DNA of 64,000 bases, from the IMG/VR virus record IMGVR_UViG_3300028797_000004. One strand, given 5' to 3'. Position 1 is the stretch's first letter. Every line of letters starts with the position of its first letter. This document shows positions 11,442-41,676 of the stretch, piece after piece. The notes beneath the pieces are model-generated. The model ran no database searches. It had not been told where the DNA came from and worked only from the letters and a program-made list of their open reading frames with translations. The position numbers and the translations under genes are program-made. This DNA is from a virus. Taxonomy: Duplodnaviria > Caudoviricetes.

Positions 11442-13794
11442 CGATATACCTGAGAAGATCTACAAGATATATCATAGCTGTACACCTGATGAACAGAAAA
11501 TATTGATGCAGATCCTGAAAGAGCTCAGTGATTCTGATATGGGCTACTCTCCTACATATACTGATATCTGGCTTGCCGATTATAAGGAGATCCCAGTTGA
11601 CATCGACACATTCTTAAATGATGATTTGTATCTAGGTAGAACAAACCGCAACGGAGCAGCTGTATATCCTTTCTGGCGAAACGAATTACACACCGTATTT
11701 GATGCAGGCAATAAATTCTATGAGTGGATACTTACTGGTGCTACTCGTATCGGCAAGACGTCTACGTTCAACTCAGGTATGGCATATATGCTATATAAGC
11801 TGATGTGTCTGCGTAATCCGCAAGCGTTTTTTGGTAAAAAAGATGTTACACAATTCAGTGTATTATTCTTTAATCTAACTGAAGAATTAGCTAGGGGCGT
11901 AGCGTTTCGAGAATTTAACGACACGATAGCAGCAAGCCCTTGGTTCTTACAAAATGGACGAATGTCCAGCTCTAAAGAAAACTCATATTACATTCCTGAT
12001 GGCGGTAAAGTATCTATCGACTTCGGTAGTTCTTATGCACATGGTCTTGGTAAACATGTTTACTGCTTAATTGCTGAAACATCTGTACTCACCAAAGATG
12101 GATACAAAACATTAGGTGAGCTCGCTAAGAAGAAAACAGCAGTAGAGATTGCACAGTATGACCCTGCAGGAAGAGTTGAGTTTTCAAAAGCTAAGGTGCA
12201 ATGCACAAAGCTTACGCACATTACAGTAAAGCTCACGCTTGAGGATGGATCTTGCATTGAGGGATCAAAAGATCATCTGATGCTTACATCGCTCAACAAG
12301 TATAAGTCACTTAGCGATTTCGCAGTAGGTGAAGCGCTTCTATGCTATCAAAGCAAACCTGTGAAGGTCACCGCTACTAAAGTAGTATTGCATACACGTG
12401 AGCCAGTACAGCTGTATGATGTAATTGACATCAAGCCTCACCATAATTTCATTATAAAGGACAAATCACACTTCATATCTCATAACTGCTGCGCTATGGA
12501 CGAGATCAACTTCTCACAAGCTGGTATTCGTGATGTAACTAAAGCGAAAACTCGTATGCGAGAAGTATACAACGTATTGTCAACTCGTGTGAAAGGTACA
12601 TTTAAGCACGGCGGTGAAGTCTTCGGTAAGATTTTCGCAGCATCGTCTAAGCGTAGTGATAGTGACTTCATGGAAGATTATATCGCTGAGCAGATGGCTG
12701 CTGGTGCTGCTGAGCACATGCACGTATCTGGTGCACCACAATGGGAAGTACTACCACCTGGCACATTCTCAGAGAAGAAATTCTACATTGCTGTAGGTGA
12801 CCGGCATCACAAAGGCTTTGTAGTGCCTGATAACCAAACAAGTGAAGAAGATCTCAATGCTCTAAAGCAGCAAGGTTATGCATTGATGACACCTCCTATC
12901 GACATGAGGTCGGACTTCGTAGCTGATTTCAACGTAGCGTTGCGAGACCTAGCGGGTGTAGCTGTTCCAGGTTCTATGTCATTTATCACACAAGAACTGA
13001 TCACCGCATGCATCACAAAGAAGCGTAGAAATCCATTCCATCAAGATATTCTTGAAATCGGTGTACACGATTCTTACTCTATTGAAGAATTCTTCCACAT
13101 AGAAGACATCACACCAGAAATTAAAGCTGCAGGGTTGTATATACATCTTGACCTTGCGCTGAATACAGACCGTGCTGGTATATCTGGTGCGGGCATCATA
13201 GGTAGAAAAGACGTAGAAGTCACTGTACCAGGACAGGAGTCTAAAACAATGTCATTGCCTGTAGTAGGTCATGGCTTCTCAATTGCAATACAAGCACCTC
13301 GCGGTGATAAGATCCCATATGATAAGATACTCAAGTTCATCTTATGGCTGAGAAAAATAGGCTTACACATACATGTAGTTAGTCGAGACCAGTTCCAGAG
13401 TGAATACATGGGTCAGCTACTTGATACTAATGGTTTCAAAGAGGAGAAGATCTCGCTTGATAGAACACCAGATGGTTATGAATGCTTGAGGTCGCTGTTT
13501 GCTGAGCAACGTGTAGAGATGCTTGATGTACAGTTACTCCAAGACGAACTCATTCACTTACAACAAGACGCTATCTCACGTCGTGTGGACCACCCAACTG
13601 GGTCAGGAAAGGATGTTGCTGACTCCTTTGCAGGTGCAGTATGGCAAGCTATAAAGTACAACGAAGGTATACTTGTGCCGAAAACAAAGATAGCATCAGC
13701 TATCAGAAATGTAAATGCGACAAACAGAAGCGCATCAAAACCAACACCAAGATTTCCTGGTCTTCCAGGTATGGGCAAATTCAAAATATATTAA
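11431..13794 (+). CDS. terL: Terminase large subunit containing an intein
   Basis: GATRIGKT Walker A, CAMDE Walker B, HLDLA nuclease motif, DHP..GKDVADS; true start probably ATG 11431. Confidence 0.9.
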   Translation: MLFDDIPEKIYKIYHSCTPDEQKILMQILKELSDSDMGYSPTYTDIWLADYKEIPVDIDTFLNDDLYLGRTNRNGAAVYPFWRNELHTVFDAGNKFYEWILTGATRIGKTSTFNSGMAYMLYKLMCLRNPQAFFGKKDVTQFSVLFFNLTEELARGVAFREFNDTIAASPWFLQNGRMSSSKENSYYIPDGGKVSIDFGSSYAHGLGKHVYCLIAETSVLTKDGYKTLGELAKKKTAVEIAQYDPAGRVEFSKAKVQCTKLTHITVKLTLEDGSCIEGSKDHLMLTSLNKYKSLSDFAVGEALLCYQSKPVKVTATKVVLHTREPVQLYDVIDIKPHHNFIIKDKSHFISHNCCAMDEINFSQAGIRDVTKAKTRMREVYNVLSTRVKGTFKHGGEVFGKIFAASSKRSDSDFMEDYIAEQMAAGAAEHMHVSGAPQWEVLPPGTFSEKKFYIAVGDRHHKGFVVPDNQTSEEDLNALKQQGYALMTPPIDMRSDFVADFNVALRDLAGVAVPGSMSFITQELITACITKKRRNPFHQDILEIGVHDSYSIEEFFHIEDITPEIKAAGLYIHLDLALNTDRAGISGAGIIGRKDVEVTVPGQESKTMSLPVVGHGFSIAIQAPRGDKIPYDKILKFILWLRKIGLHIHVVSRDQFQSEYMGQLLDTNGFKEEKISLDRTPDGYECLRSLFAEQRVEMLDVQLLQDELIHLQQDAISRRVDHPTGSGKDVADSFAGAVWQAIKYNEGILVPKTKIASAIRNVNATNRSASKPTPRFPGLPGMGKFKIY
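12064..12486 (+). mobile_element. Mini-intein (141 aa, no endonuclease) in TerL
   Basis: Starts CLIAETSVLT, block B GSKDH, block F LYDVID, ends SHN followed by a +1 Cys; splicing restores KHVY-CCAMDE. Confidence 0.9.
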
Positions 13795-13805
13795 GGAGGT
13801 AGGAC

Positions 13806-15398
13806 ATGGAAAACCGTTTCAGTCCAATCAAAGCACCTCATTGCTGTACATCATTGCAGCCAGGTGCAACAGTAACACTTGTACCTTATGGTGTACTGAT
13901 AACAATACAGTACAGCTCAGAAGGTAACATCGAAAAAATCTACACAGGGGTGTACCCTTCGGGACAAGATGTAACGCCTAAGCTGATGAACAAATTTATT
14001 GACAATGCTGTAGCGCCAACGAAAATTAATATTACAGGCGGTACCACATGGGTTGTAGGTGTTATAGTACCACAAGGTATAATCTTTCAAGAAGGTACCG
14101 TCTCGACAGACATCGTAAATGATATGGTGGACGCTGATCCATCTACTTATCAATTTTATGCTGCATACATTGAGAGTAACGCAATAGCGTTCCACAATAT
14201 ACAATCAATCAATCATGTGTTGAGTACATACGGATTCAAGACATTACCTATGTGGGTAGTTCCTTTCGCAGGTGTATCTCAAGCAATCATGGATTCTTGG
14301 TTCAGTGCTGACACATGGATTTTCTCTACAAAGGTAGTTATGAACTATGTTTCATGGATGAACGGAGAGAAGTCTTGGTATACAACAGATCTGCATCAGT
14401 TAGAGGTTGATAGAGTTCAAGTTGATACAGATGCTGCAACTGGTATTGTTCATGCTACGCTGTATAATACTTCCGGTGAGCACATAGCTGTATCTATGTA
14501 TGATATATACAAGTATCAGATCCAGAAAGGCGCTATGGTGCTGCTTGATGCAATAGGTACAGTATTGCTTTCAGTCCCAACAGGTAAACACAAACAATCA
14601 CATGTGTCTAACACTATCACTTGTGCATACTGTGGTAAACAGTATAAGGTACAACCTGGTATTGAAACTATCTGTCCTGACACACACTGCACATCTAGAT
14701 TAGTTGAACGTATTAAGTTAATGCTTAATATGTTTAATTTACCTATCAATTATTCTGATGATGAGTGGTCCGAGAAGATAGCATCAAAACATCTCATGTG
14801 TTTAACAGATGTGTTCACGCTTCCTGTATTTGAGCACATGGAGATTACAACAACTCTTGCAAACATTCTCAGAGCTTTGATTCCAATATCTCTTATCAGG
14901 AGTAATGATGTGTTTGAAGAATTTGCAAATAGATGCAACAATAACGTAACCACATTTCAGTATTATGTCACAAACTTCGACAGAGCTGAGTTTGATCTCA
15001 ATTTTCATCACACTGATGCCCCTAAGCTGGGCTGCTGGCTGAGTGAGCCTGCTAATGCTTCTGATGTAGCTGCTGTGCTGATGCTACCTAACCTTACAGT
15101 AACCGGTACAGGTAGAAGCTACAATGGTGCACCAATCTTCAGAAATAAACGGTTCTTCATCACTGGCGGATTCAAACGTGGTGCAATCAATGAAATAGCT
15201 GATTTCCTTCGCAGTTATTCCGCAGAGGTGTACACAGAATGGAATGACAAGATCAATGCTGTAGTTGTGGGCTCAACGCGCACAAACATAGACGGCCAAG
15301 CTATCTATAAAGCTCGCATGAAAGAGATTGACATATTTGACGAAGATGAATTTTTCACATGGTGCGATCTAGATTCGGACCTTGCGAACCTACAATAA
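13806..15398 (+). CDS. Degenerate NAD-dependent DNA ligase-like protein (Zn finger plus BRCT)
   Basis: CAYC..CPDTHC Zn finger; C-terminal BRCT (KRFFITG..VVG..KA); no KxDG motif at the expected position. Confidence 0.65.
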   Translation: MENRFSPIKAPHCCTSLQPGATVTLVPYGVLITIQYSSEGNIEKIYTGVYPSGQDVTPKLMNKFIDNAVAPTKINITGGTTWVVGVIVPQGIIFQEGTVSTDIVNDMVDADPSTYQFYAAYIESNAIAFHNIQSINHVLSTYGFKTLPMWVVPFAGVSQAIMDSWFSADTWIFSTKVVMNYVSWMNGEKSWYTTDLHQLEVDRVQVDTDAATGIVHATLYNTSGEHIAVSMYDIYKYQIQKGAMVLLDAIGTVLLSVPTGKHKQSHVSNTITCAYCGKQYKVQPGIETICPDTHCTSRLVERIKLMLNMFNLPINYSDDEWSEKIASKHLMCLTDVFTLPVFEHMEITTTLANILRALIPISLIRSNDVFEEFANRCNNNVTTFQYYVTNFDRAEFDLNFHHTDAPKLGCWLSEPANASDVAAVLMLPNLTVTGTGRSYNGAPIFRNKRFFITGGFKRGAINEIADFLRSYSAEVYTEWNDKINAVVVGSTRTNIDGQAIYKARMKEIDIFDEDEFFTWCDLDSDLANLQ

Positions 15399-35460: not shown

Positions 35461-36225
35461 ATGTTTGTGTCCGAGTCATTTTGCTCAATTGACGGTGAAG
35501 GCGTTAGAGCAGGACAAAAAGCCGTGTTCATACGTTTCGCAGGTTGTAACATTCGTTGCGAATACTGTGACACCAAATACTCGCTTGCTGAATCGCAAGC
35601 TAATGCAGCATACACATGCGCTGCTGATGTAGCTGAAGCAGTAACAAAATTCTGCGTAGAAGGTGTAGTGAATAACATCACAATCACAGGTGGTGAACCT
35701 TTGCTATATCCGGATGATATCTGCGCTATACTTGACCAGCTAGATCAAACACAATTTGCGTTCAGTATCAATATTGAAACAAATGGCACTATCAGCCCAG
35801 TTGAGTTCATTGAGAAGTACAAGAGGACAAGTTTCGCTCACTGCTTACTCAATGATTTGTTCTTCACTTTTGATATCAAAACTTATTCGGCAGGTGAAGA
35901 TGCAAAGGCAGCTTGTATGCAGGGTGATAGTTTACTTCCTGTTATTGCAAGCTATTCACCTTACATAAACACTTTCACAAGAAAGTATAATGACGTAATC
36001 AAAGCTGTAGTTGGTTCTCGAGAGGATCTTGATTATATTCGCAAGATCTACACATCATGGATCACAAGACCTCATGAGTACCAATGGTACATCTCGCCAG
36101 TATTTGGCAAGATAGAGCCTTGTGATTTAGTTGAGTATGTGCTCACACACAATGATTGTGCAGCATGGCGAGTTCAAATTCAGATGCATAAAATCATATG
36201 GAACAGTGATAAGCGAGGCGTATAA
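35461..36225 (+). CDS. queE: 7-carboxy-7-deazaguanine synthase QueE (radical SAM)
   Basis: ESFCSIDGEG, FIRFAGCNIRCEYCDT, TGGEPLL, IETNGT, QMHKIIW. Confidence 0.92.
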   Translation: MFVSESFCSIDGEGVRAGQKAVFIRFAGCNIRCEYCDTKYSLAESQANAAYTCAADVAEAVTKFCVEGVVNNITITGGEPLLYPDDICAILDQLDQTQFAFSINIETNGTISPVEFIEKYKRTSFAHCLLNDLFFTFDIKTYSAGEDAKAACMQGDSLLPVIASYSPYINTFTRKYNDVIKAVVGSREDLDYIRKIYTSWITRPHEYQWYISPVFGKIEPCDLVEYVLTHNDCAAWRVQIQMHKIIWNSDKRGV

Positions 36226-36226
36226 C

Positions 36227-36688
36227 ATGAAGTTCTATATTCATGCAATGTCTGATGCTAGGAGAAAAATTGAGTCAACTTTGCGTGACGCTACTCCGAA
36301 GATAATCGAACACATTGCAAAATTGATATTGATGCCTGATAGTGAGTCTCGCAATCATTGGGAGAAAGAAATTGTCACATTTATCAGCAAAGTTTCTACA
36401 CTGAAAGGTAGCAATAAATGGCCAACTGCAAAGCAGATATTTAGCTGGACATATGGTATTGATCAAGATCTGATTCAACGACCAGCTTGGGTTAAGGTGT
36501 ATATGCGTAACATTGCACGAGATGAGGGCTGCGAGTTTGATTCAAGTCGAGATTACTCTACCATATTAGATTATATTTGCTATCATTATTTTACGTGGCT
36601 GTCAGAGCAGCTGAGTCAACAAGGCATCATAGATCATCAGGAAGCTTATGTGCTTCTTGATGATTTGCTTGCAGATTATAGTTTATGA
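36227..36688 (+). CDS. DUF29-like protein, paralogue 1 (tag MKFYIHA)
   Basis: HIAKL...SRNHWEKEI; clear similarity to 53196 and 58707. Confidence 0.6.
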   Translation: MKFYIHAMSDARRKIESTLRDATPKIIEHIAKLILMPDSESRNHWEKEIVTFISKVSTLKGSNKWPTAKQIFSWTYGIDQDLIQRPAWVKVYMRNIARDEGCEFDSSRDYSTILDYICYHYFTWLSEQLSQQGIIDHQEAYVLLDDLLADYSL

Positions 36689-36707
36689 GAAAGGGGTACG
36701 AATATCT

Positions 36708-37010
36708 ATGTACACTGTAGACGATAAATACAAAATTCACAGAGAGCTTACTGAAAAGCTCAATCCACTGTATGTGGCTAAGAATACAGATTATGATGAC
36801 AGCTTCGGCAAGAGCATTGATGATTCTGGCTATCTTGCAGCTATTACAAGAATGGAAGACAAGATGAGAAGAATCAAAGCTCTTCTGAGTAAAGTAGAGG
36901 GCAATCAGAAAGTTGCAAATGAATCTATTCAGGATACACTGATAGACCTTGCGAATTACTCTCTGATGCTTGCTACAGAGGTAGAGCTTAGAGCTAACAA
37001 CATAGACTGA
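36708..37010 (+). CDS. Nucleotide-modification-associated domain (DUF1599/MazG-like)
   Basis: KNTDYDDSF...RMEDK.RR...ESIQDTLIDLANY. Confidence 0.75.
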   Translation: MYTVDDKYKIHRELTEKLNPLYVAKNTDYDDSFGKSIDDSGYLAAITRMEDKMRRIKALLSKVEGNQKVANESIQDTLIDLANYSLMLATEVELRANNID

Positions 37011-37155
37011 TGCTTGAATCGTTATAATAATTGAAGGAAGAAAGCCAACTTCCTTTCGCAGTTATTCAGCCGAGGTTTTTGAAAGTATTTACTCGGTGAA
37101 GACCGCTCCTTACATCAAAGTACTCCGCCTGGTGCTCACACCACTAGGCGGGCAT

Positions 37156-37191
37156 GGGCTACTTGAGGTAGTGACTTGGGCAGCCCTTCCA
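37156..37191 (+). ncRNA. Minihelix-like hairpin 1
   Basis: 12-bp stem (one A-C mismatch), loop GTAGTGA, followed by TTCCA. Confidence 0.5.
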
Positions 37192-37254
37192 AAATACATC
37201 CGTTCTATCTCCGTGACGCACTTGTCACCCCCTGACGTGCGTCACACTCTTTCT

Positions 37255-37334
37255 TGGGGTATCGTCAAGCGGTTCAAGACAGCAGATTTTGATTCTGCCA
37301 TATGTCGGGAGTTCAAATCTCTCTACCCCAACCA
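37255..37334 (+). tRNA. tRNA-Gln(TTG)
   Basis: TGGGGTA/TACCCCA, GCAGA-TTTTGAT-TCTGC, GTTCAAATC, CCA. Confidence 0.88.
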
Positions 37335-37684
37335 TCGTTCCAACAGGTAGGACGAATACAGTGATTCAGAGCAATAGTGTGTAAGTGGTGAGGAAGAAAC
37401 GCAGACATGATATACTACACTAGTATAGCTTGTGAGACTGCTGACGACACCCATCTGAGCTCTGACACGATGCAGAATAGGTAAATTACTATGATGCATC
37501 TCCAATAGGTGAAGAGACTCCTTAGCTGTTTGCAAGCGGCTTAAACAAATCTCCGAGGGAGCGACACCCGGGAACCACAGGCGTTGAGTGGTGGGCACTA
37601 AAAAGCCGTGCTAGGTATTCCTTCGCACGTAAAACCTTTGGAATCATGTGAGTGGTCTATGACGCAAGGCGCACTCACACAGCT

Positions 37685-37719
37685 GATAGCGTCGAGGTAA
37701 TGACTTGTCGCTGTCTCCG
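37685..37719 (+). ncRNA. Minihelix-like hairpin 2
   Basis: 12-bp stem (one U-U), loop GTAATGA, followed by TCCG. Confidence 0.5.
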
Positions 37720-37826
37720 ATAATCGAGATAAGTGCCCGTTCGCAGACGTGCTGATGAGGAATCAGGAATCAGTCGCGGAGCTGGTTTGTAGTGGAGTTT
37801 GAGGAACAGCTTATCTCGATAATAGC

Positions 37827-37911
37827 GCAGATGTGGTGAAACTGGAAGACACGCGAGATTTAGGTTCTCGTACCGAAAGGTGTGTAGGTTCAAATCCTAT
37901 CATCTGCACCA
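37827..37911 (+). tRNA. tRNA-Leu(TAG)
   Basis: GCAGATG/CATCTGC, CGAGA-TTTAGGT-TCTCG, variable arm, CCA. Confidence 0.92.
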
Positions 37912-38025
37912 GTACACGAGGCTTCTGACCCATTGAGCCTAGTGTATGATTTTTCAGGCTTGTGGCGTTGTACATAAGCTACTTTCCTCATGTAGCTGCC
38001 GGTTTCCGCACTTCCGGCAGCAAAT

Positions 38026-38060
38026 GGTCAAGTTGAGGTAATGACTTGATTTGATCACCA
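38026..38060 (+). ncRNA. Minihelix-like hairpin 3
   Basis: Fully paired 12-bp stem (with G-U pairs), loop GTAATGA, followed by ACCA. Confidence 0.55.
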
Positions 38061-38144
38061 ATAGGGTTGCCTCCTACTTTAACCTCGGGAGTTGCTCCCG
38101 AACCCCTTTGCCATCAGAGCGGTGAGCACACACCGCTCTGGCAC

Positions 38145-38218
38145 GCAGATGTAGCACAACGGTAGTGCATCAGCTTCCCAAGCTGAGGACACGAGTTCGA
38201 CACTCGTTATCTGCTCCA
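38145..38218 (+). tRNA. tRNA-Gly(CCC)
   Basis: GCAGATG/TATCTGC, TCAGC-TTCCCAA-GCTGA, GTTCGAC, TCCA. Confidence 0.9.
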
Positions 38219-38303
38219 GTAGTCTCTACCTGGCATGATAGATTCGACTACACTTTTTCAGCGTTTGAAAGGTTCTCTCAGAATTGCAGCTCTGAGAGGA
38301 TCT

Positions 38304-38381
38304 CCTCACTTAGCTTAACAGCTAAAAGCAGTCAGTCTGCAGCTGACATATTACCGAGGGCAGCACCGGTAGTGAGGACCA
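38304..38381 (+). tRNA. Atypical tRNA-like gene (central triplet TGC)
   Basis: CCTCACT/AGTGAGG acceptor plus ACCA, D stem GCTT/AAGC, GTCAG-TCTGCAG-CTGAC; non-canonical T loop GGCAGCA. Confidence 0.6.
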
Positions 38382-38420
38382 AGTGACGTTTCCATACAGT
38401 CACTCACAACCTTTCGGCAG

Positions 38421-38449
38421 AACCTCCAGCGAAATAAGCTGGAGGTTTT
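38421..38449 (+). terminator. Terminator of the tRNA island
   Basis: AACCTCCAGC-GAAATAA-GCTGGAGGTT plus T run. Confidence 0.8.
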
Positions 38450-38515
38450 GTTTTATACGAATCGTTAATATTCTTGAGAACATTTATATGTTATTCACGA
38501 AAGGAGTAGTCAAAT

Positions 38516-39451
38516 ATGCAGAAATTTTATAGTAAATATAGACGAGGTGACGTCTGGTTCCTTAAATTCCACACAGAGCGTGGTGATGGCAATGATAATA
38601 GTTCAGTGCAGAAAAAGTCTAGACCATATGTCATCGTGTCTTGTGAGGAGAATAACAATAACGCACCTACATTCAATGTATGCCCGATCTCTTCAAGAGA
38701 TAATGATCACCTTCCACCACATGTATACTTCAGATATGAAGATGGGACTGAGTCTGCTAGAAATCAGCTTGTGTTCTGTGAGCAGATAACTACTGTTTCC
38801 GTTCAAGATTTTCTGAGAAGCGGATCGTACTTCATGTATTCTTTCTCAGTGGAGTTCATGGATAAGATTGACACAGCTCTTGCAGCACAACTTGGTCTCC
38901 AGATTCGTGTAGCTGATATGCACGTTCTAGAGTCCCTCATAGATAAGCTTGCAGCGCAGAAGCTGGAAGACATTCAGAGGTTGAGAGAAAAGGCACTAGA
39001 GTCTCGTGTCAATGATTTAGCTGCTAAGCTTGCACAGCAATTCCACATTGATCTAGATGCTCAAGATCTCCTCAATGGTCTCACATACACTGATAAGGCT
39101 GATACAATCTACACGCCTAAAGATGTGCTTCAGCAGATGAAAGAAGCTGAGGTAGAGCGCACCAAAGCTCCTAAGGCAGAGAAATCATACCATAAGCTTA
39201 CTGTTCCGAAACTTACAAATAGATCCGAGCTTACTGCTCCACCAAAGATAAATGCTGTACCTTTAGCTTCTCCTCCTGCTGCTGAGCCCACCAAAGTTAA
39301 ATATAAATCCTGGACACTTGATATGAAAAAGCAGTTCTTAGACGATTACAAGCGATTGTCACTCAAAGATATACAGCTCAAGTATGATATGAAGAAATCC
39401 ACAATTCAAACTAATGCTTGCAAATTCCGGAAGGAACTTGGTATCAGATGA
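38516..39451 (+). CDS. PemK/MazF-domain protein with a long C-terminal extension (HTH-like end)
   Basis: RRGDVWF...QKKSRPYVIVS...NN...VCPISS...CEQITTV. Confidence 0.8.
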   Translation: MQKFYSKYRRGDVWFLKFHTERGDGNDNSSVQKKSRPYVIVSCEENNNNAPTFNVCPISSRDNDHLPPHVYFRYEDGTESARNQLVFCEQITTVSVQDFLRSGSYFMYSFSVEFMDKIDTALAAQLGLQIRVADMHVLESLIDKLAAQKLEDIQRLREKALESRVNDLAAKLAQQFHIDLDAQDLLNGLTYTDKADTIYTPKDVLQQMKEAEVERTKAPKAEKSYHKLTVPKLTNRSELTAPPKINAVPLASPPAAEPTKVKYKSWTLDMKKQFLDDYKRLSLKDIQLKYDMKKSTIQTNACKFRKELGIR

Positions 39452-40023
39452 CACCTCAAGAGCTGTTTGAAGCAAATCAGAAGCTGGTGTACTGGTGTTT
39501 TCATAAACTTCGATGTCCGGAATCTATGAAGGAAGATATGCTGCAATCCGGATTCATGTATCTATGGAAAGCTTGCTTGACATTTGACCCAAAACTGGGC
39601 AATCAATTTACTACATATGCAGTACCATATGTACTTGGTGGAATGAAACGAATATACCGGGATAATATGCACACAGTAAAGATACCAAGGTCCATGTGGG
39701 ATGCAAATCAAGCTGGTCAAGTCTCGCAGCTATCGCTAGATCAGCCAATTGATGAAGCTTCTGATAATTCAGCGACATTAGGCGATTTGCTTCCCGGCTC
39801 ACCTGATGATTATTCTAATCTAACTGAAGATCTCATAGATGCGTTTCTTGAGACAATCGAGAAAGAGCCTGATCGAAGTATATTTGAGGAGTGGATATAC
39901 AGTATAGTATATGGTGATAAATTAACTCAAGAATATCTTGCAGCTAAATACAATAGAAGTCAGCCGCAAGTGATGCGAGTAATAGCTGCGTGTAAACAAA
40001 AATTCAAGAAATTCATAGAGTAG
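39448..40023 (+). CDS. Phage sigma-70-family factor 1 (SigF/G-like)
   Basis: DMLQSG...LWKACLTFDP..G.QFTTYA (region 2), SLD, TQ..LA....SQPQV.R (region 4). Confidence 0.88.
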   Translation: MTPQELFEANQKLVYWCFHKLRCPESMKEDMLQSGFMYLWKACLTFDPKLGNQFTTYAVPYVLGGMKRIYRDNMHTVKIPRSMWDANQAGQVSQLSLDQPIDEASDNSATLGDLLPGSPDDYSNLTEDLIDAFLETIEKEPDRSIFEEWIYSIVYGDKLTQEYLAAKYNRSQPQVMRVIAACKQKFKKFIE

Positions 40024-40026
40024 GCG

Positions 40027-40623
40027 GTGAATATTTTGAGCCCTGCAGAACTATTCAACAATAATCAAGCACTTGTGCATTCTGTATATCATAGATACTT
40101 CTACCAATATCCTTTGGAGCAAGAAGAATTAGTGCAGGAGGGGTTACTAGCCCTCTGGATAGCTGCTCAGAAGTATGATCCAACTGCAGCAAAGTTCTCC
40201 ACTGTAGCTCATACATACATATTCAATGCCATGCGTAGATACATACGAGATCAGACAACATGTATACACCTTTCAGCTCGTGAGTATGAAAAGAACAATC
40301 CTGAAACATATCACAAAGCTCGTTATTATGTGTCCTTAGATCAAGACATAGACGCTGGCGGAGATTCTGATATCACCTTGCATGAATCGCTTGGTGGAGA
40401 AGAAGATGACTATAAAGGCGCAACGCGCTCGCTCATATATCAATTTATCTCAACTGTTGATAGCCCTAGGGACAAACAGCTTCTAACAGATTATTATATT
40501 GCTCAAATCGAGAATATCAAATTACAACAAAAAGATCTAAGTAGAAAATATAAGCTTTCACAGAATCGAGTTAGTTCACTTATCAAAGATGCAAATAAGA
40601 AATTTCAGAAATTTGTCTCATAA
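40027..40623 (+). CDS. Phage sigma-70-family factor 2
   Basis: ELVQEGLLALWIAAQKYDP..AKFST.A, SLD, QKDLS....SQNRVS. Confidence 0.85.
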   Translation: MNILSPAELFNNNQALVHSVYHRYFYQYPLEQEELVQEGLLALWIAAQKYDPTAAKFSTVAHTYIFNAMRRYIRDQTTCIHLSAREYEKNNPETYHKARYYVSLDQDIDAGGDSDITLHESLGGEEDDYKGATRSLIYQFISTVDSPRDKQLLTDYYIAQIENIKLQQKDLSRKYKLSQNRVSSLIKDANKKFQKFVS

Positions 40624-40636
40624 GGGGAGATGAAAT

Positions 40637-40972
40637 TTGAAGTCATTCAAGATTCTTAGGAACAGGTGTATAGAAGTCCTTGGACGACATGGCTATCATC
40701 TGTCAACTAAACTCAACAATTCTGGTGTGATGTGCGACTCTCGAATATACATCAAGTCCGCGCAGGAAGGATGCATATTCAACGAATACATCAGCGATAC
40801 ACCTGTGTTAACGATTGCATTCTACAAATCGTTCTTGACGTTCACACCTTCAGCTATGTTTGTAGCTAAATTTGATGCAGGTGTTGTTGACGTTATCACA
40901 ATGCATCAGAATTCAGAGTTAACTTGTATGCTGAAAGAATTAGAAGCTGTAGCAAAGGAGCAGAAGCGATGA
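40637..40972 (+). CDS. Hypothetical protein
   Basis: Lies in an operon; RBS. Confidence 0.5.
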   Translation: MKSFKILRNRCIEVLGRHGYHLSTKLNNSGVMCDSRIYIKSAQEGCIFNEYISDTPVLTIAFYKSFLTFTPSAMFVAKFDAGVVDVITMHQNSELTCMLKELEAVAKEQKR

Positions 40973-41676
40973 AGTTTATACGACAGTCTGTAGAAATCAG
41001 ATCAAAAGAATTTACTAATGAATACGTCCTTGAGCTTATTGAAGACGCGGCGAGAACGTGTTACAAATCAGAAGCGAATAAGAAACCTGGGTCAGCAGAA
41101 CGCCTAGTGAAAAACCTTATTTCTCGTGGTCATGAAGCAATGCTTGAGCATGGGCCTGCATTATCTATGAGATTCATCACTGACCGAGGTATTACACACG
41201 AGATAGTTCGACATCGACTTTTCTCATTTGCTCACGAATCCACAAGGTATGTGAAGTACGGACAAGCTGGTGAGGATATGGAATTTATCCTGCCCGAAGA
41301 GAAGGGGTACATTACGCAACCTGATAAGCTGCTTGCTCGTAGCTGGCATCGCATTGTTGAAAGCGATGATGAAACCGCTGACTACTTTGCTTTGCCGCCG
41401 ATTGAACAAGAAGTCATCGCTGCTTTCACAGGAGCCGAAGCTCACTATCGTGCATTGTTAGAACTTGGCTGCCAGCCTCAAGCTGCTCGTGATGTACTGC
41501 CTACTGATGTTAAAACAGAAATCGTAGTTACAGGTAATATTCGAGAGTGGCGTCATTTTTTCACATTGAGATGTGATAAGGCTGCACATCCTCGTATGCA
41601 GTTGCTTGCAAATACAGCATTAGAGCTTGCGTATAACAGATGCCCGCTTGTATTTGCCGATATTGTGAACCAGTAA
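40969..41676 (+). CDS. thyX: Flavin-dependent thymidylate synthase
   Basis: GHEAMLEH, RHRLFSFAHESTRY, ARDVLP, NIREWRHF..LR...AHP. Confidence 0.93.
   Translation: MKFIRQSVEIRSKEFTNEYVLELIEDAARTCYKSEANKKPGSAERLVKNLISRGHEAMLEHGPALSMRFITDRGITHEIVRHRLFSFAHESTRYVKYGQAGEDMEFILPEEKGYITQPDKLLARSWHRIVESDDETADYFALPPIEQEVIAAFTGAEAHYRALLELGCQPQAARDVLPTDVKTEIVVTGNIREWRHFFTLRCDKAAHPRMQLLANTALELAYNRCPLVFADIVNQ

Follow-up and report, generated by a model that had tools for sequence, protein, structure and literature searches.

The 64,000-nucleotide stretch of phage DNA analyzed here (the window) contains three short hairpins that resemble the acceptor/T-arm minihelix of a tRNA, and these raise the question of what role such RNAs could have in a phage transcript. 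The window belongs to a complete phage genome of 148.7 kb (G000) with terminal repeats, whose closest protein matches are to gut Firmicutes phages. The hairpins lie in a 1.5-kb tract with no credible open reading frames, which runs from the end of a DUF1599 gene (37010) to the start of a MazF/PemK-like gene (38516) and holds ~35 predicted hairpins together with tRNA-Gln, tRNA-Leu, and tRNA-Gly, all three with an encoded CCA. The features of the tract, where H2 denotes the hairpins in question and H1 their leader hairpins, are as follows.

37003..37031 (+): weak sigma-70-like promoter match at the head of the tract, the sole such match there
37124..37152 (+): H1a, leader hairpin of H2a, 11 bp, loop CUCACAC
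37156..37191 (+): H2a, 12-bp hairpin, loop GUAGUGA, tail UUCCA
37213..37245 (+): leader hairpin of tRNA-Gln
37255..37334 (+): tRNA-Gln(UUG), encoded CCA (tRNA search)
37469..37504 (+): H2d, fourth hairpin, 12 positions with a tandem G-A mismatch at 7–8, loop GUAAAUUA, tail UCCA
37647..37679 (+): H1b, leader hairpin of H2b, within a stretch 92% identical in G001
37685..37719 (+): H2b, 12-bp hairpin, loop GUAAUGA, tail UCCG
37720..37825 (+): structured element with a 14-bp long-range closing stem, leader of tRNA-Leu
37827..37911 (+): tRNA-Leu(UAG), encoded CCA (tRNA search)
37995..38021 (+): H1c, leader hairpin of H2c
38026..38060 (+): H2c, 12-bp hairpin, loop GUAAUGA, tail ACCA
38114..38141 (+): leader hairpin of tRNA-Gly
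38145..38218 (+): tRNA-Gly(CCC), encoded CCA (tRNA search)
38303..38381 (+): cloverleaf-like RNA, a 7-bp closing stem and three hairpins, then ACCA (fold z -3.5)
38416..38455 (+): terminator-like hairpin with a U run, closing the tract

The Hairpins of the Window

A preliminary description had placed hairpins with a 12-bp stem and a 7-nt loop at 37156, 37685, and 38026, and exact matching and folding show these coordinates and this geometry to be right. The 14-mer GAGGTARTGACTTG occurs exactly at 37165, 37694, and 38035, each time on the + strand; the only other match in the window has two mismatches and lies on the - strand, and the rest of the 148.7-kb genome contributes a single near-match (one mismatch, genome position 109646) that is not a hairpin. 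H2a, H2b, and H2c each fold to a 12-bp stem with a 7-nt loop, with fold z-scores of -2.5 to -3.6, and are followed by the tails that had been claimed for them (UUCCA, UCCG, and ACCA). Folding of the tract also bore out the separate hairpin and short linker reported ahead of each copy and ahead of the genuine tRNAs: upstream of H2a, H2b, and H2c there is a separate, unrelated H1 hairpin and a linker of 3–5 nt, and upstream of each tRNA a leader hairpin and a linker of 3–9 nt. Because both follow a hairpin and a 3–9-nt linker, the hairpins and the tRNAs of the tract fill equivalent slots.

A strict scan of the whole genome on both strands (G...C ends, a G-C closing pair, a loop starting GUA, and at least 10 of 12 pairs) returned H2a–H2d alone, all inside the tract, with no further H2 hairpin in the remaining 147 kb. 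H2d, whose stem and loop span 37469–37500, has the H2 geometry with an 8-nt, GUAAUUA-like loop, and its ortholog in G001, a 166-kb relative, has changed outer pairs and the tail ACCA. All four hairpins are on the + strand of one promoter-to-terminator tract, together with the three tRNA genes, and no promoter-like site was detected on that strand inside the tract.

Other elements of the tract were also recorded. The tRNA-Gln(UUG) at 37255–37334 measures 80 nt and has an enlarged variable region, which is unusual among class I tRNAs. The leader hairpins form a second recurring hairpin class, in which the loop types CUCACAC and AGCACA are shared by unrelated stems (37124–37152 and 38114–38141 in the window, and L074 of G001); the H1a loop CUCACAC, on another stem, also precedes a hairpin in G001. 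The structured element at 37720–37825, which contains CUGAUGAG and is not matched by hammerhead models, has 81% identity in G001, where another H2 precedes it and no tRNA follows. At 38271–38302 (+) lies a 12-bp hairpin that starts with G, ends with C, and carries an 8-nt loop, AUUGCAGC, and the tail UCCU; its geometry is H2-like and its apex unrelated. The cloverleaf-like RNA at 38303–38381 was called by neither ARAGORN nor Rfam and may be another tRNA surrogate.

On the upstream flank (35461–37010) a QueE-like radical SAM enzyme and a DUF1599 nucleotide-modification domain are encoded, and on the downstream flank (39418–41676) two adjacent sigma-70-family factors and ThyX. Directly past the tract terminator, 38516–39451 (+) encodes a 311-aa protein with an N-terminal PemK/MazF toxin domain and a C-terminal half of ~185 aa without assignment. 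The hairpins might be imagined as the RNA partner of this protein, its substrate or antitoxin in a layout like that of type III toxin-antitoxin systems, and the order of tract, terminator, and MazF-like gene is indeed kept in both G000 and G001; the ~35-nt unit is, moreover, close in size to ToxI-type repeats. However, the copies are not tandem repeats, being 280–530 nt apart and interleaved with tRNAs, and the neighbor is of the PemK family and not the ToxN family, so that a ToxI-like RNA was rejected. The MazF-like genes of other phages lack such a tract, H2 contigs elsewhere lack a MazF neighbor, and we regard a partnership of this kind as highly improbable.

H2 Hairpins Are a Phage RNA Family

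The H2 hairpins are a real, conserved, and uncatalogued phage RNA family. Pattern scans covered viral, genome, and metagenome collections, and their hits split in two: about half had 11–12 of 12 stem pairs and an H1 directly upstream with a short linker, and the others had 10 pairs or fewer and no H1/linker context. By chance, 11 or more stem pairs would be expected in ~1%. True members are present in at least 12 distinct uncultured phage lineages of 28–45% GC, among them G001 (four copies), L049 (two), L111, L013, L135, L139, and a large AT-rich group that includes L005, L022, L011, L036, and L080; others come from contigs that had been binned into one Clostridia and one Bacteroidales MAG, the two bins on which host assignments rest. 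Because 596 Gb of prokaryote genomes gave just 6 matches, 2 of them true members, the element is viral. Two large families of near-identical contigs with the 16-mer ('agcgtttc...' and 'tacccat...' types), whose folds are weaker or different, were left out.

The preliminary description had not recognized a named family in this motif and had proposed a covariance model with a search of phages and Rfam. The model, built from 17 copies, recovers those copies at 41–58 bits and found extra copies in L036 and L049. Rfam 15, at the gathering threshold and at E up to 10, returned only tRNAs from the tract and eight related loci, in agreement with the absence of a name. A blastn search of 50,697 deposited phages with the tract, and likewise with an AT-rich H1+H2 unit, gave only tRNA-Leu matches or nothing, and no copy is present in Phass-1, which by ThyX is the nearest phage with a name. 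Relatives sought through the MazF-like and sigma proteins came to none or one distant one, and the literature, searched for the loop sequence and for minihelices or tRNA-like punctuation in phages, yielded no account of them.

Anatomy of Stem, Apex, and Tail

The preliminary claim that the outer stems covary holds on 17 sequences from several phages. Paired cells make up 95% of this alignment, whose members were chosen for pairing, as compared with 68% in shuffles (0 of 500 as high) and 30–46% when the partners were slid; the unbiased control is the split between 11–12 and ≤10 pairs over all pattern hits. Changes on both sides are seen in 8 of the 12 pairs. The stem spans 12 positions without indels in all 17 aligned members and in all three reported copies, and the loop has 7 nt, or 8 nt in the fourth copy, H2d.

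Within this fixed length the stem has two parts. The seven basal pairs are near-random in sequence, complementary, and covarying, and the five apical pairs (U-A, U-G, G-U, A-U, and G-C) are fixed, as is the loop. All but one of the ten unpaired cells are confined to positions 6–8 from the base, where the tandem mismatches of the variants are also found. The stem starts with G1 and ends with C72 in every member (17/17), the loop-closing pair is G-C, and U stands at -1 in 13 of the 17 members and in all three reported copies of the window. Since G-U pairs account for 27% of paired cells, the fold can form only from the strand that is sense for the flanking genes.

An N73-CCA sequence follows the stem in 8 of 11 elements from contigs of 39–45% GC, mostly continuing AUA, where chance would give ~1/64 for each; in AT-rich contigs its place is taken by N-AAA. 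The match is exact in one of the three reported copies (ACCA), the other two tails being UUCCA and UCCG. Wider relatives have an altered apex that keeps the form AG[G-N-A-A...A]CU, with the loops GUAACGA, GUAAUUA, GUAAAUUA, GAAACGA, and GGAAAUA. Neither the GUARUGA loop nor its relatives are the T-loop UUCRANY, though the closing G-C is present. The likeness to an acceptor/T-arm minihelix put forward at the outset therefore stands for the shape (G1-C72, 7+5 pairs, U-1, N73-CCA in 8/11 elements at 39–45% GC, and the tRNA slots) but not for the sequence of the loop.

Several other identities were considered for the hairpins and rejected. They are not tRNAs (RF00005), as ARAGORN and Rfam call only the genuine ones, the Rfam tRNA model gives no partial match on the hairpins at E up to 10, and there is no room for D or anticodon arms. 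The G3-U70 pair of alanine identity is found in just 4 of 17, and a mini-ORF or SD-AUG reading of GAGGUAAUGA fails on frames that are not conserved and a spacing that is too short. A scan for a 7-bp stem followed by N and CCA, with about one match per 1.2 kb, was too permissive to inform.

H2 Hairpins Are Interchangeable with tRNA-type Elements

The equivalence of slots in the window has a counterpart in the AT-rich phages. L011 and L022 have in common the linker UAUUUAUAU, a 5' UTR, and a homologous downstream gene, and between linker and UTR there is an H2-type hairpin in L011 and a 40-nt mini-tRNA in L022, consisting of a 7-bp acceptor stem and the canonical T-arm GCGGG-UUCGAUU-CCUGC. That hairpin, mini-tRNA, and tRNA can replace one another in equivalent slots shows a way in which tRNA genes may degenerate into processing signals or originate from them.

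The mini-tRNA, found at L022:2189–2228 and in L005 (- strand, reverse-complement positions 129–168), has a 9-nt connector and no D or anticodon arm, and its acceptor stem is similar to that of H2 in the same phage.

Gene Neighborhoods and Cassette Borders

Most members outside the window are single copies between ordinary genes, with no tRNA nearby. One H1+H2 unit lies just upstream of (small subunit)-TerL-portal genes in L011, L036, L080, L049, and L111. Elsewhere, three units separate small genes in L036, each past a stop codon and 45–50 nt before the next start; in L082 the unit comes after the major head gene, and in L076 its neighbors are an anti-repressor gene on one side and an unknown gene on the other. 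The annotated H2 neighborhoods have no protein family in common. Because most homologs of the downstream gene phrog_3314 in other phages carry no upstream element (one has a variant), the unit is dispensable. In L005, L022, and L036 the same intergenic regions contain, upstream of H1, a further conserved hairpin class with covarying stems and a loop CUUUAG followed by GAGGUUCA.

The position of single copies right upstream of terS/TerL/portal genes in at least five lineages would suit a cis-acting regulatory hairpin, with an apex that binds RNA polymerase or a protein of phage or host, as in nut/put-like antitermination or a late-operon leader, and with an incidental likeness to tRNA. Such a role would also accommodate an apex that is exactly conserved while the base varies, a unit that always comprises two hairpins, and loops that begin GNRA-like, as in boxB-type protein sites. 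However, it leaves unexplained an unvarying G1-C72 on a stem whose length is fixed at 12 bp, the N73-CCA, the confinement of mismatches to positions 6–8, the sharing of slots with tRNAs, and the replacement by a mini-tRNA with a T-arm, and a common protein family is missing from the neighborhoods. On balance we consider it rather unlikely.

H2 units also coincide with the borders of indels and replacements. Where the window has one H2, G001 has two that bound a 2.3-kb two-gene insert; comparison of L005 with L022 shows whole cassettes exchanged, both in the interval from mini-tRNA to H2 and immediately past H2; and in L127, a chimera, the crossover falls within the apex. These borders, together with the precedent of the PeSLs (PMC4122927), are what a recombination module, or the end of a small mobile element, would be expected to leave. 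Recombination, however, needs sequence identity and not 12 covarying pairs or G-U pairs that form on one strand, and the sigma-70 promoter half of a PeSL is absent. A promoter or PeSL-type cassette was itself rejected, there being no promoter-like site at or after any copy and no consistent -35/-10 by eye in AT-rich members. Among the neighborhoods annotated, TnpB is near the hairpin in L005 and L076 only. The shuffling is more likely a side effect, and we find a recombination module distinctly improbable.

The TnpB gene of L005 (12106–13194, - strand), with OrfB_IS605 and Cas12f1-like domains, occupies the slot of an unrelated gene in the near-identical L022, and is preceded by a 150-aa ORF (13464–13916, - strand) that may be TnpA. 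TnpB is directly upstream of the hairpin in L005 and 1.3 kb off in L076, and is absent from the window and from the other annotated neighborhoods. An IS200/IS605 end or a TnpB guide-RNA scaffold was rejected, TnpB being near two lineages only and no Rfam IS605 motif being present.

A Proposed Role in Transcript Punctuation

Hairpins made of an acceptor stem and T-arm are cut at the canonical site by bacterial RNase P, for which the 12-bp helix serves as a ruler; enzymes of type A and type B alike use U-1, G1/C72, and RCCA as determinants (PMC11143913). We propose that H2 hairpins mimic the tRNA acceptor/T-arm and act as punctuation for RNase P and possibly for 3'-end enzymes, a reading to which we would give about an even chance of being correct. 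The split of the stem into acceptor and T-stem equivalents (7+5) is supported by the seven basal pairs, which vary with compensatory changes, and the five conserved apical ones; the loop-closing G-C matches G53-C61 of tRNA, and the unpaired cells sit, with one exception, at the acceptor/T junction. Further weight comes from the slots shared with tRNAs in a tract where no internal promoter was detected, from the mini-tRNA that stands in L022 where L011 has H2, and from a fold restricted to the sense strand. Against the proposal, the loop is not a T-loop, the unit is dispensable, two of the three reported copies lack an exact N73-CCA, and in AT-rich phages H1 followed by a U run resembles an intrinsic terminator, which could halt transcription before H2.

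As we picture it, the phage would place these minihelix mimics as punctuation marks in polycistronic transcripts, and host RNase P, with the 12 bp below the loop as its measure, would cleave at the junction of U(-1) and G1. This would leave H1 at the end of the upstream RNA, protecting its 3' end, and a fully paired 5' hairpin at the start of the downstream RNA, protecting that end. Where N73-CCA is present, 3'-end enzymes could release a tRNA-like, CCA-ended hairpin RNA of ~35 nt. The four units and three tRNAs of the window would thus go through the same processing machinery on one transcript, and in other phages a single H1+H2 unit would separate cistrons, often ahead of the terminase operon. 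We infer transcription, cleavage by RNase P and 3'-end enzymes, protection by H1, and processing to ~35-nt RNAs from sequence and predicted folds. Since a plain RNase P site needs no apex conserved letter for letter, something else probably reads the apex, and its exact conservation in a form other than the T-loop points to a further partner.

The function first suggested for these RNAs is that ~35-nt CCA-ended species would act in trans as decoys or sponges for enzymes or defence toxins directed at tRNA 3' ends or recognizing tRNA-like helices. The conserved apex does suggest a specific ligand, N73-CCA occurs in this phage group, and the tRNA operon of the window holds four copies together with a cloverleaf-like RNA ending in ACCA. 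Most members elsewhere, however, are single, lack an encoded CCA, and lie between protein genes far from tRNAs; no phage CCA-adding enzyme was found in G000, G001, or G002, and the element shows no link to a defence or counter-defence gene, which together make decoys quite doubtful. If H2 hairpins were instead widespread anticodon-less tRNA surrogates, excised as ~35-nt RNAs with CCA added where needed and with the GUARUGA apex read in trans, they could serve as sponge, decoy, or cofactor and not simply as sites of cutting; this too we think unlikely.

Should RNase P and 3'-end enzymes cut H2 as the punctuation proposal has it, a tRNA surrogate of 31 nt would serve several phage lineages as an all-purpose mark for cleavage and end protection, and this would account for the resolution of long structured non-coding tracts and multi-gene transcripts with no need of phage nucleases. 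Annotators would gain a new RNA family, and synthetic operons a compact processing part.

Comparison with Known Systems

Phage small RNAs matured by RNase P include the CI RNA of P4 and the species 1 RNA of T4. The C4 RNA of P1/P7 has also been named as an RNase P substrate (PMC11143913). In these RNAs, as in mitochondrial tRNA punctuation, the host enzyme for tRNA 5'-processing cuts parts of transcripts that are not tRNA, as is proposed here for H2. The phage RNAs are single and lineage-specific with known regulatory roles, whereas H2 is a repeated, generic module in many unrelated phages.

Among the closest precedents are the synthetic minihelix substrates of RNase P (McClain/Altman; PMC11143913), which share with H2 a 12-bp helix, a 7-nt loop, G1-C72, an unpaired N73, in part a CCA, and a single-stranded U-1. 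H2 differs in being natural, conserved, and phage-encoded, in having GUARUGA in place of a T-loop and a conserved tandem U-G/G-U in its T-stem equivalent, and in that its cleavage is predicted from these likenesses.

With regard to position, the PeSLs of T4-type phages (PMC2839356, PMC4122927) are, like H2, short conserved intergenic stem-loops at variable cassette borders with indels and replacements. They carry a sigma-70 promoter and conserve sequence rather than pairing, whereas H2 has no promoter match and covaries strongly.

Equally close as precedents, plant mitochondrial t-elements are tRNA-like, intergenic sequences that coincide with mRNA ends and have been read as RNase P/RNase Z signals (Forner et al. 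2007, PMC1920247). These and the acceptor-stem-like stem-loops described with them resemble H2 in being tRNA-like, in lying between genes, and in having no decoding role. The t-elements are degenerate cloverleaves that keep the T-arm motif GGTTCRANYCC (PMC1920247), in contrast to H2, which is a bare phage hairpin with a different apex and predicted RNA ends. If H2 is cut as we propose, it would be the bacterial-virus counterpart of mitochondrial tRNA punctuation and of the plant t-elements.
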